Shown piece by piece: positions 13,304 to 15,680 of a stretch of 38,281 nucleotides of DNA (position 1 is the first letter of the stretch; each line of letters begins with the position of its first letter). The stretch comes from a virus. A program made the translations under genes and the position numbers. The stretch lies in the UHGV virus genome UHGV-0173928. One strand, 5' to 3'. Below the pieces are notes generated by a model. The model was not told the DNA's origin and did not search any database. It saw only the letters and a program-made list of their open reading frames with translations.

Positions 13304-13323
13304 TACTGTTCATTTATACAGTA
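13304..13323. promoter_or_regulatory. LexA (SOS) box shared by divergent humD and the 13459 operon
   Basis: TACTGTTCATTTATACAGTA fits CTGT-N8-ACAG with flanking TA, located in the humD / 13459-gene divergent intergenic region. Confidence 0.75.
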
Positions 13324-13458: not shown

Positions 13459-14043
13459 ATGCCTAATCGCATTCCTCTCGATCCTGTATTGCCCAAAAAT
13501 TTTGACTGCACTCCTAACGAGAAACGCTCTAAAGCTCAGCTGGACGCCTGGTGGGACCATCCATATGGGGTTACACAACCTGACGGGAAAATTGTAGTTT
13601 ATTGTCTGAATGGTGGGGCGTGGGACCGTCCATCCGTGCTTTGTTTGGCAGATAACTATGATGAAGCCTGTGAACTTGCCGAAAGACAGCAGGCAAGCTG
13701 GGTAAAAACACGGTCTGAACCGACATTCATGTTTTCAAAAGAACCGCCATTTATACTGGCGAGGATGCCGCAGCGACCGGATCATCAACAAGAAATTGTT
13801 GCTGAATTTTCCTCTAGGGATGAGATGAATCTCTTCTCATTAAAGCAGGAAGAAAGGGATCGCGTCGAAGTGTCTCCAACTCTCGACCACAACCGGATGA
13901 ACCTGGCCCAACTCGCCTGGTACAGCAAAGAATTAGAGATGTCTATTGCCCGACTTGAAAACGAAAAAGCCGCTATCCAAGCCCAGCATGAAGTAGTTCT
14001 GAACCGGATTAGAGAAATGCAAAACGATAACAGGGGATTTTGA
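13459..14043 (+). CDS. hypothetical protein, likely LexA-regulated (possibly P1 lxr-like), coiled-coil C-terminus
   Basis: 194-aa ORF with ATG and AGGA-type RBS, divergent from humD across the LexA box; no catalytic motif recognised. Confidence 0.6.
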   Translation: MPNRIPLDPVLPKNFDCTPNEKRSKAQLDAWWDHPYGVTQPDGKIVVYCLNGGAWDRPSVLCLADNYDEACELAERQQASWVKTRSEPTFMFSKEPPFILARMPQRPDHQQEIVAEFSSRDEMNLFSLKQEERDRVEVSPTLDHNRMNLAQLAWYSKELEMSIARLENEKAAIQAQHEVVLNRIREMQNDNRGF

Positions 14044-14406
14044 ATGGCTAAAATCGAGTACCATCGCGATCGCGGTAATTACCTGGAAATATACGATCAT
14101 GAATCTCTTAACGATATCAACGATGCGTTATATGAATACTGTGAAAAAACGAGCATCACAGATGCACCTGATGCATTTGTCGAGCTACCGGTATATCTCC
14201 GCGACATCTATGCAATACGAACACCGCCCGTATCGGTGATCCACATTGGCTATGTCCGCCTGTCCATCGAAGAAGATGAAGATCGTTATATCGTGCGCCA
14301 CTATACATTGGACAGAAAAGAGCTTCCCAATGAATGGAACATGAGTAATTTCTACAACGGTGAATATGGCTTAAAACCCGCTAAGAATGGCGCGGGCATT
14401 GCGTAA
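14044..14406 (+). CDS. hypothetical acidic protein, second gene of the LexA-box cassette
   Basis: 120-aa ORF whose ATG overlaps the upstream stop (TGAATG coupling); no motif recognised. Confidence 0.55.
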   Translation: MAKIEYHRDRGNYLEIYDHESLNDINDALYEYCEKTSITDAPDAFVELPVYLRDIYAIRTPPVSVIHIGYVRLSIEEDEDRYIVRHYTLDRKELPNEWNMSNFYNGEYGLKPAKNGAGIA

Positions 14407-14417
14407 TAGCCTAACAA

Positions 14418-14669
14418 CTATTCTGTTTTCTGATATGCCGGATCGTTCCCTTTTGGCAACTGGAGGCTTAACTGCCGATAGTGCCGTAACCGTTCCATGA
14501 AATAGGTGCGCAGCTTCTCTGGTTGCTCGCGGGCTACCTGTTCAGCTATGACAGGTATGTTCAATCGCTCTTTGTACGCCACACCGCTGGCAGCCAGATC
14601 AACGTTAACCTTATCCCGTTCTTCCTGACTTTTAGCTGCAATATTCCAATCGTGCATATCAAATCCCAT
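14418..14669 (-). CDS. hot: Hot, homolog of DNA polymerase III theta subunit (HolE)
   Basis: 83-aa protein with ...[43 protein letters not shown]..., clearly similar to E. coli theta. Confidence 0.85.
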
Positions 14670-15105
14670 CCAGAATAATTGAGTAACGACTATTATTTAA
14701 CCAGCAAAGTAACTTTTAATTTTTTTTCTTCTCCCATTGATTTTTGTGCACAGCTTATCTGCCTTGCCGTGCGCAGAATCAACTTTTTTCTTCCTGATTT
14801 ATCCACAAAGTTATGCACTTGCAAGAGGGCCATTTTCTAAATATTGTGATGTTTCACAAATGAAATGAATTTTGATTAATGAAGATAAGGAGAAAATTTG
14901 AGATGCAATCATGACGTTAATAGATAGGGTCTGCATTACAGACCCCATCCGCATCAAGGAATTAGCCGTTCCCTGATGTTGTTCCGAAAACATGTGCCGT
15001 AAGCTCACGTTAACGACTTTCTTTCACCGAATCCAACTATATAGGGGTTGGGTTTCTACGTCAACGTGAGCAAGTGCTCCTTTACATTTGACAAGGAACC
15101 CCTTA

Positions 15106-15243
15106 ATGACTGCTTTTTTTCAGTTCCTGAGTGCATTTTTAGATGCGCCTGTTATTAGCCAGATTCTGGCGATCATCCTCATCATCGTTTTGATTTTGCT
15201 TTTAAGGTCAGTAAAAAATGGAATTATGCACTGGCTTACTTAA
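15106..15243 (+). CDS. 45-aa hydrophobic single-pass peptide (candidate small membrane toxin / holin-like protein)
   Basis: ATG preceded by AAGGAA; MTAFFQFLSAFLDAPVISQILAIILIIVLILLLRSVKNGIMHWLT; below the 60-aa ORF-track cutoff; 13-bp imperfect inverted repeat (15003-15015 / 15059-15071) in the leader. Confidence 0.35.
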   Translation: MTAFFQFLSAFLDAPVISQILAIILIIVLILLLRSVKNGIMHWLT

Positions 15244-15317
15244 TGTTCAGTGAAACATTAAAATCTCCTTGATGTGGAAACAATCATTTTCTGTATGTGC
15301 TGGTGGGTACCTGTAGT

Positions 15318-15680
15318 TCAGCTTTCGTTGGCATTTAACTTCGTCTTTGCTTTCTCCACCAGCAACTTCCAGATGCCTATTTCATTAGCAGCCGCCTTGA
15401 TGGCGGCATAAAAAGCATCTTGCTGATCGTAACGCTGAATCTGTTTTTTCAGTTTTGCCTCCACCAATTTAATTTCATTACGTGCTTTCTGAAGCCGCAG
15501 CGCCGCCCGGTTACGTCTGTTCTTGTATAGCGCGTTAATCTCTGACAATTGCTTTAATTTACCAGCCTGACTGCGGATTATCGCCTCTCTGACTTCTGCC
15601 GTGCGTCTCATCTGATCTCTTAAGAGTTCACCGTTTTCGATAATTCTTTCAAGGTGTTTGATGTGATCTGCAACTCTCAT
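15318..15680 (-). CDS. hypothetical coiled-coil protein (P1 pmg-region gene)
   Basis: 120-aa ORF, start overlaps the upstream gene stop. Confidence 0.5.
   Translation of the reverse strand: MRVADHIKHLERIIENGELLRDQMRRTAEVREAIIRSQAGKLKQLSEINALYKNRRNRAALRLQKARNEIKLVEAKLKKQIQRYDQQDAFYAAIKAAANEIGIWKLLVEKAKTKLNANES

Follow-up and report, generated by a model that had tools for sequence, protein, structure and literature searches.

A candidate antisense-regulated membrane-peptide cassette in the hot-pmgV spacer of a P1-like element

What is encoded in the AT-rich DNA between hot and pmgV? The question arises from the virus genome UHGV-0173928, a stretch of 38,281 nucleotides (the window; positions and strands below are those of this stretch), in which hot (14418-14669, - strand) and pmgV (15318-15680, - strand) are separated by a spacer with a GC content of 38%, against 47% for the window as a whole, in keeping with the AT-richness remarked on in an earlier note. 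About 1.3 kb of this region is 99% identical to phage P1 and 96% identical to P7, SJ46 and many P1-like phage-plasmids. Few phages have been studied as closely as P1, long a workhorse of E. coli genetics, and resistance genes are being spread in Enterobacteriaceae by P1-like phage-plasmids. The P1 reference record places genes in this spacer on the - strand only, upfO, upfN and upfM ('unknown protein function'). The earlier note, made from the letters of the DNA, drew attention to a 45-codon frame on the + strand and likened it to type I toxin mRNAs. Analysis of the locus and its relatives indicates that the spacer is best explained as one separable cassette of ~530 bp (~14715-15243) rather than as three small - strand genes. 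The layout of the cassette suggests an antisense-RNA-controlled membrane peptide with the architecture of a type I toxin-antitoxin (TA) system, of a new family and with a DnaA/nrd-type input rather than one from LexA, a reading that is favoured here with somewhat less than even confidence. Two of its elements, PupfN and the nrdA-like block, are already noted as predictions in P1 records.

The reading frame and the annotated genes of the spacer

The + strand open reading frame (ORF) runs from an ATG at 15106 to a TAA at 15243 and specifies 45 residues, MTAFFQFLSAFLDAPVISQILAIILIIVLILLLRSVKNGIMHWLT. A Shine-Dalgarno (SD) sequence, AAGGAA (15093-15098), can be read 7 nt before the ATG, frame and ribosome-binding site both being present as first described. 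ATG 15106 is taken as the start, since a TTG further upstream (15088) shares its frame in the window but not in P1 or P7. The product is predicted to be a single-pass membrane peptide with an amphipathic N-terminus, a transmembrane (TM) segment at about residues 16-33 and a basic C-terminal tail, and it has the small size (<60 aa), the hydrophobicity and the single TM segment expected of a type I TA peptide. The length of the ORF is by itself uninformative, because 53% of shuffled spacers contain an ATG-initiated ORF of 45 codons or more. The TM-like helix noticed earlier is borne out by composition: its 17-residue core has a mean Kyte-Doolittle (KD) hydropathy of 3.32 in the window, and in 2000 shuffles of the spacer no ORF of 40 aa or more had a 17-residue core that reached a KD of 3.0.

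Searches with tblastn located the ORF in 228 plasmids, of which ~29 constitute a second lineage (e.g. pRHB27-C01_2; RHB27-type below) with 55-60% amino acid identity over residues 1-45. The conservation in related elements on which the earlier note had staked its proposal was found, in that frame, length, start, stop and TM segment are kept at 60% amino acid identity. In the second lineage the start, stop and length of the ORF are the same as in the window, the SD is GAGGA at a similar spacing, the hydrophobic core has a KD of 2.83 and the C-terminal tail is again basic. Between the lineages the ORF is 77.5% identical at the nucleotide level with no indel in its 138 nt, as against ~7 indel events in ~163 columns (a manual count on one alignment) in the flanks, which comprise the SD region, the downstream spacer and the spacer that follows the transcription start. 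The amino acid replacements are mostly exchanges among I, V, L and F, and the ratio of nonsynonymous to synonymous substitution (dN/dS) is 0.45-0.50 between the lineages and 0.18 against P7. In simulated mutation an intact frame with an equally hydrophobic core was retained in 2.7% of cases, and in nature the ORF is intact in ~97% of copies. The + strand ORF is thus probably a real gene for a small membrane protein, with coding evidence that is moderate.

Several altered alleles circulate. IS1 has inserted independently in both peptide lineages, in the same orientation and past the TM segment (codons ~36-39), to yield tails of the form ...VMTPTY. There are in addition two frameshift alleles, one with its lesion in an A-run (15212-15218), and a further allele, P0002, is truncated after residue 31. 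The altered ORFs are those of loci L062 (3001-3132), L066 (2748-2885), L067 (1828-1965) and L063 (3001-3150), together with P0001 and P0002. All of the lesions seen leave the TM helix and the leader untouched, in a sample whose detection is biased towards N-terminal matches. The window itself differs from every other copy examined by two 1-base deletions. The first, at ~15100, makes the spacing between SD and AUG 7 nt instead of 8 and also frameshifts the P1-annotated upfM; the second, at ~15244, lies just past the stop codon of the peptide.

The ORF is missing from the records of both P1 and P7, the latter likewise listing - strand ORFs only in the spacer; in plasmid records PGAP names its product WP_000123562.1, a hypothetical protein. 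The - strand frames were rejected as genes, in that none is conserved among related elements. Thus, upfM has 37 aa in P1 and 26 aa in the window, following a 1-nt deletion and frameshift, and is absent in the RHB27-type lineage; upfN has 65, 102 or 42 aa across variants, with differing starts; and upfO, the counterpart of E. coli ypaB, is also variable. No match was found in Pfam and NCBIfam for upfN, upfO or the 26-aa upfM frame of the window, nor anything significant in PHROGs for upfN and upfO. Judged by their sequences, the three 'upf' genes are probably annotation artefacts.

Opposing promoters and the structured leader

The DNA that leads into the ORF begins with a copy of host sequence. 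Homology to the upstream and promoter region of nrdA in E. coli K-12 extends over 14715-14848 (+ strand) and, by alignment to K-12, includes two DnaA boxes, TTATCCACA (14799-14807) and TTATGCACT (14811-14819), a -35 element TTGCAA (14819-14824) and the position of the -10 element, TATTGT (14842-14847), which reads TATCTT in nrdA and TACTGT in the second lineage. The two DnaA boxes abut the -35, the arrangement of an nrdA-type DnaA-regulated promoter, and both lineages retain the -35 as well as the T-A-x-x-x-T pattern of the -10. A 56-bp core is 95-96% identical to the ypaB-nrdA intergenic region in all 5426 complete E. coli genomes. Beyond the core, weaker homology to the nrdA region continues upstream for ~100 bp, and over a greater distance in P7; at the other end the homology stops exactly at the -10. 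In the P1 record the 56-bp block is described as similar to E. coli DNA that contains two DnaA boxes, and the older record M95666 names it 'nrdA-like promoter', on the strand that is + in the window. Unlike the nrdAB promoter, that of the cassette lacks the nrdA leader and the NrdR boxes (no match to ACACWATATATWGTGT at up to 3 mismatches within the cassette), and it faces a phage leader and a peptide rather than ribonucleotide reductase. Because it points away from hot and towards the ORF, a + strand mRNA is predicted to start at ~14855 (predicted start site ~14853-14857), with a 5' untranslated region of ~250 nt (14854-15105).

The annotated upfO falls within the captured DNA as part of the nrdA upstream region (window 14693-14833, - strand; L008 409-552; L003 1380-1560), and the part of that region present in P7 is longer, and closer to E. 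coli, than that in P1 or the window. As for the SOS-linked flank proposed in the earlier note, a LexA box does exist, CTGTTCATTTATACAG (13306-13321), between humD and an lxr-like gene and matching a site annotated in P1; it is ~1.5 kb distant from the cassette, and no LexA box was found in 14670-15320.

A strong promoter in the opposite orientation lies within the leader. The search for an antisense small-RNA promoter that had been recommended led to PupfN (15036-15064, - strand), one of three sigma-70 promoters that the P1 record predicts for the spacer, the others being P1upfM and P2upfM; the late promoter LPhot is annotated there as well. PupfN has a -35 TTGACG (15064-15059), a 17-nt spacer and a -10 TATAGT (15041-15036); it matches the consensus at 10 of 12 positions, the best promoter match in the region, and its predicted start site is ~15029. 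It is identical in the window, P1, P7 and both RHB27-type loci, and no other - strand promoter is conserved in all lineages. P1upfM and P2upfM, considered as possible promoters for an RNA complementary to the entire ORF, were rejected, since neither is conserved in the second lineage.

The candidate cis-antisense RNA transcribed from PupfN would span 14918-15029 on the - strand, ~110 nt with an uncertain 3' end. It is predicted to fold into a single-stranded 5' tail of 13 nt followed by three hairpins (14985-15015, 14952-14978 and 14922-14950). The folding energy of this interval in the window is -43.8 kcal/mol for the - strand (z-score -5.85) and -30.2 kcal/mol for the + strand (z -3.44); the corresponding values are -43.2 (z -5.61) and -27.9 kcal/mol (z -2.93) for the P7-type, and -37.5 (z -4.12) and -24.5 kcal/mol (z -2.92) for the RHB27-type. 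The three-hairpin fold is the same in all three variants, and the - strand is always 13-15 kcal/mol more stable than the sense strand, an asymmetry explained by several G.U pairs of the - strand RNA, whose + strand counterparts would be A.C mismatches. Substitutions between the lineages include one compensatory pair (14930/14942), two one-sided changes that keep the pair and three that are confined to the loop of hairpin 2, and three pairs are lost at helix ends. The 13-nt tail is the exact complement of + leader positions 15016-15028, which are predicted to be unpaired inside a large + strand stem, a disposition that fits recognition by an antisense RNA. Rfam gave no match for the whole window at the gathering threshold, and a permissive scan of 14600-15400 gave only noise, the best hit being a sub-threshold BsrG fragment (15 bits, against a gathering score of 55).

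The most constrained part of the cassette is the leader/antisense block rather than the ORF. Block 14886-15073 is 90-94% identical between the lineages, and its core, 14984-15070, which contains PupfN, has 2 differences in 87 nt (98%), as against 66-79% for other non-coding segments. The 13-nt inverted repeat first noticed at 15003-15015 and 15059-15071 is present, with arms that are 92% complementary, are separated by 43 nt and enclose a further hairpin at 15030-15056. The small hairpin that had been placed at 14923-14942 also has a real and perfect 7-bp stem (14927-14933/14939-14945), whose end was set a few bases short: the stem reaches 14945 and is extendable to 14923-14949. Both features are unexceptional among the 30 inverted repeats in 800 nt, and their weight comes from conservation. 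The + leader as a whole folds with a z of -2.35. In the consensus fold, the 15030-15056 hairpin and the 15003/15071 stem sit upstream of the antisense start, and both contain G.U pairs that are present on the + strand only.

Two short frames within the leader, of 21 and 25 aa, stay open without a purifying pattern. The 21-aa frame was rejected as a peptide and reads as RNA rather than protein, because ~8 nonsynonymous changes and 1 synonymous change separate the lineages, including both hairpin-compensating changes; the 25-aa frame is too invariant between the lineages for a coding test. A further leader segment, GAGAUGCAAUCAU (14900-14912), is complementary to the AUG region (15106-15118), with 11 of 13 pairs in the window, 13 of 13 in the RHB27-type and weaker pairing in P7. 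On the evidence of modelled pairing, this segment may act as a long-range translation lock, a second layer of control. It also holds a 3-codon mini-ORF (ATG 14903) whose TGA overlaps an ATG at 14911.

A possible mode of action and its alternatives

From these elements a pathway can be proposed. The nrdA-type promoter would transcribe the + strand from ~14855, through the structured leader and into the 45-codon ORF, while PupfN would fire leftwards to yield the compact three-hairpin RNA, perfectly complementary to leader positions 14918-15029. The two RNAs would first make contact through the free 5' tail of one and the unpaired loop (15016-15028) of the other, and their pairing would keep the peptide mRNA untranslated or unstable; the leader covered by the antisense RNA precedes the SD by about 80-190 nt. 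Synthesis of the peptide would then be confined to times when the nrdA-type promoter is strongly induced, as by replication stress or a change in DnaA status, or when the labile RNA is lost. The scheme presumes synthesis of both RNAs, translation of the ORF, repression by the antisense RNA, and a peptide that is toxic or membrane-active.

The cassette is best read as working like a type I TA system without being a member of any named family. It resembles ldr/rdl and hok/sok in having a small single-TM peptide (<60 aa) behind a long structured 5' leader, a plasmid or prophage location, and a strong, presumably constitutive, opposite promoter in the leader, from which a short and structured cis-antisense RNA is predicted to arise at a distance upstream of the toxin SD. 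It differs from them in lacking Hok/Gef or Ldr sequence similarity, a canonical U-tract terminator for its antisense RNA and, in relation to hok/sok, a conserved overlapping mok-like frame. The likeness to tisB/istR-1 and dinQ/agrB lies in a membrane peptide whose promoter is tied to the state of DNA metabolism, in a constitutive small RNA that would act on the 5' untranslated region far upstream of the SD (standby-site logic), and in DNA-damage genes nearby (humD, the lxr-like gene and their LexA box). In contrast to those systems, the promoter of the cassette is an nrdA copy with DnaA boxes and is not LexA-controlled, its candidate RNA would be fully antisense in cis instead of divergently encoded and only partly complementary, and its peptide has 45 aa, against 27-29 aa, and an unrelated sequence.

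Membership in known families was addressed directly. The peptide gave only noise against Pfam and NCBIfam at E values up to 10, and nothing significant against PHROGs and PADLOC. It stands outside the Hok, Ldr, TisB, DinQ, Ibs, ShoB, ZorO and Fst families, because no family model matched it and the phmmer search returned P1-like copies only. A Hok/Gef gene (PF01848) with mok/sok organisation was rejected, there being no model match and the sole overlapping upstream frame (36 aa, TTG 15048) being broken in P1 and P7, as was an SOS-regulated type I toxin of the tisB, dinQ or symE kind, the cassette containing no LexA box. The resemblance in layout to type I toxin loci proposed in the earlier note thus stood, and the comparison with Hok, TisB, Ldr and DinQ that it suggested gave no match.

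A number of observations weigh against the proposed antisense-controlled peptide. Family searches revealed no similarity to a known type I toxin or antitoxin RNA. On the coding side, the substitutions are spread evenly over the codon positions (11/8/12) with a dN/dS of only ~0.45, and 13% of simulations leave the frame intact by chance. Alleles whose C-terminal tail is changed persist in nature, although they are uninformative on toxicity. On the RNA side, covariation is minimal, with 1 compensatory and 3 broken pairs, because there are only two deep lineages, and all relatives recovered from protein, viral, genome and metagenome searches fall within those two. Recombination could also have contributed to the conserved block. 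No convincing intrinsic terminator was found after either the peptide mRNA or the antisense RNA, and for want of the latter the - strand transcript may read on to hot. Finally, occlusion of the SD induced by the antisense RNA was tried as the means of repression and gained no consistent support: when the antisense-covered leader was masked in constrained folding, SD accessibility fell in all five variants by very different amounts and the AUG responded in the opposite way in the RHB27-type, leaving no consistent direction across lineages.

The alternative that survives best, although it is rather unlikely, is that of a benign small membrane protein made from the nrdA-type promoter, a 'moron' that might modulate a host membrane protein or serve in exclusion or defence. 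PupfN would then be mainly a lysogenic sigma-70 promoter with a long 5' untranslated region for hot, and any antisense effect would be head-to-head interference. The second lineage, the simulations and the shuffles, which speak for a conserved ORF, apply equally to such a peptide, and alleles with modified C-terminal tails do circulate. Furthermore, PupfN is followed after 360 nt by hot, which it faces on the same strand, and the intervening DNA has no clear terminator; according to Chikova and Schaaper (2007), hot is reportedly expressed in lysogens, which would need a sigma-70 promoter upstream of LPhot. Against the assignment of PupfN to hot stand both the RNA and the distribution of the cassette. 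The first 112 nt from PupfN form an unusually stable three-hairpin RNA (z to -5.85), beyond what a plain mRNA leader needs. The cassette is also separable from its neighbours. Among fetched loci with enough flank to be counted, it occurs with both hot and pmgV in 20, without hot in 23 (P7-type, with IS903 and other DNA on the left), where PupfN and the structured RNA are nonetheless kept, and without pmgV in 9 (RHB27-type, with a type I restriction-modification system on the right). Conversely, RCS47 keeps hot and humD without the cassette, in whose place is an unrelated 116-aa + strand ORF (L068 3263-3613); a diverged cassette beside hot was sought there and no similarity was found. Because of this separability from hot and pmgV, the conserved block is not merely the upstream region of hot.

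It is also conceivable, if unlikely, that only the RNAs or promoters are functional, either as a small RNA from PupfN with targets elsewhere or as a regulatory region for hot and its neighbours, and that the ORF is an untranslated by-product of T-rich sequence. The higher conservation of the leader/antisense block than of the ORF suits this explanation, as do the weak coding signals in dN/dS and codon position, the chance survival of the frame and the commonness of such ORF lengths in the spacer. It does not readily account for 138 nt free of indels amid indel-rich flanks, with start, stop, SD and length conserved, nor for substitutions that are mostly hydrophobic-for-hydrophobic and that keep the basic C-tail (joint probability ~0.03), nor for the failure of any shuffle to yield a TM-grade ORF. 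Moreover, the intact ORF is never found apart from the leader. The two co-occur, in that coverage of the leader plus the ORF is 80% or more in 226 of 229 plasmids, and every contig with the leader 21-mer also has the ORF pattern, and vice versa.

That nothing here is functional, the spacer being decaying captured host DNA with chance ORFs conserved because P1-like elements are young and recombining, is highly improbable: there are only two lineages, most copies are >95% identical and the region is dispensable for lytic growth (PMC10695390), but block-wise conservation, with a 98% core beside 66-79% flanks in one alignment, and the joint presence of a strong promoter, an extreme folding z, an intact hydrophobic ORF and retention in three genomic contexts would not be expected of junk.

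The antisense-controlled peptide is accordingly kept as the preferred reading. Its fullest form, an unrecognised type I TA family in which the toxin promoter derives from the ribonucleotide-reductase gene of the host and a membrane-active peptide is released on DnaA or replication status rather than through LexA, is possible, if doubtful. Were it true, a replication-stress-triggered switch for dormancy, addiction or abortive infection would lie beside the phage homologues of theta (hot) and UmuD' (humD). If the preferred reading is right, P1 would possess a second, RNA-controlled addiction or stress module beside phd/doc, and its reference would name three probably non-existent genes in the spacer and miss a real one. 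A toxin promoter taken from nrdA would plainly illustrate how a mobile element can connect a membrane effector to the DnaA/replication-status circuit of its host; to our knowledge, such an input has not been described for type I systems.

Distribution, literature and the surrounding genes

The search for relatives was broad. An exhaustive phmmer search of 1.84 billion representatives returned P1-like copies only, four in number, all of them truncated or frameshifted alleles of the two lineages. Relatives were also sought by a word-indexed search of 5.8 billion proteins, with leader and ORF patterns against IMG/VR and with a core 24-mer against metagenomes, and the leader 21-mer had 0 matches in GTDB genomes.

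In the literature, a survey by CRISPR interference and deletion classed upfN, upfO, hot and pmgV as nonessential for lytic growth of P1, with upfM not among the genes tested (PMC10695390), as expected of an accessory module. A comparison of P1-like phage-plasmids placed pmgT-humD in a variable region (PMC9603915). The literature search brought up no paper that mentions the peptide, by sequence or by accession, or any RNA from the spacer, and the spacer region is not discussed in the P1vir RNA-seq paper.

The surroundings of the cassette vary on both sides. In RHB27-type elements, a type I restriction-modification operon (hsdM, hsdS; L005 3177-5135 and L007 3178-5135) lies ~540 bp downstream of the peptide ORF and on the same strand, in place of the pmgV-pmgT train. 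To the left of hot, the window differs from P1 over 13459-14406 (+ strand), where a 194-aa lxr-like ORF is followed by an extra ORF of 120 aa. This layout is that of pRHB27-C01_2 (L005), although the peptide cassette of the window is P1-type, which points to mosaic recombination around hot. Within the hot coding sequence itself is a 17-nt palindrome, CTGTTCAGCTATGACAG (14538-14554), one base too long for a LexA box and probably due to chance.

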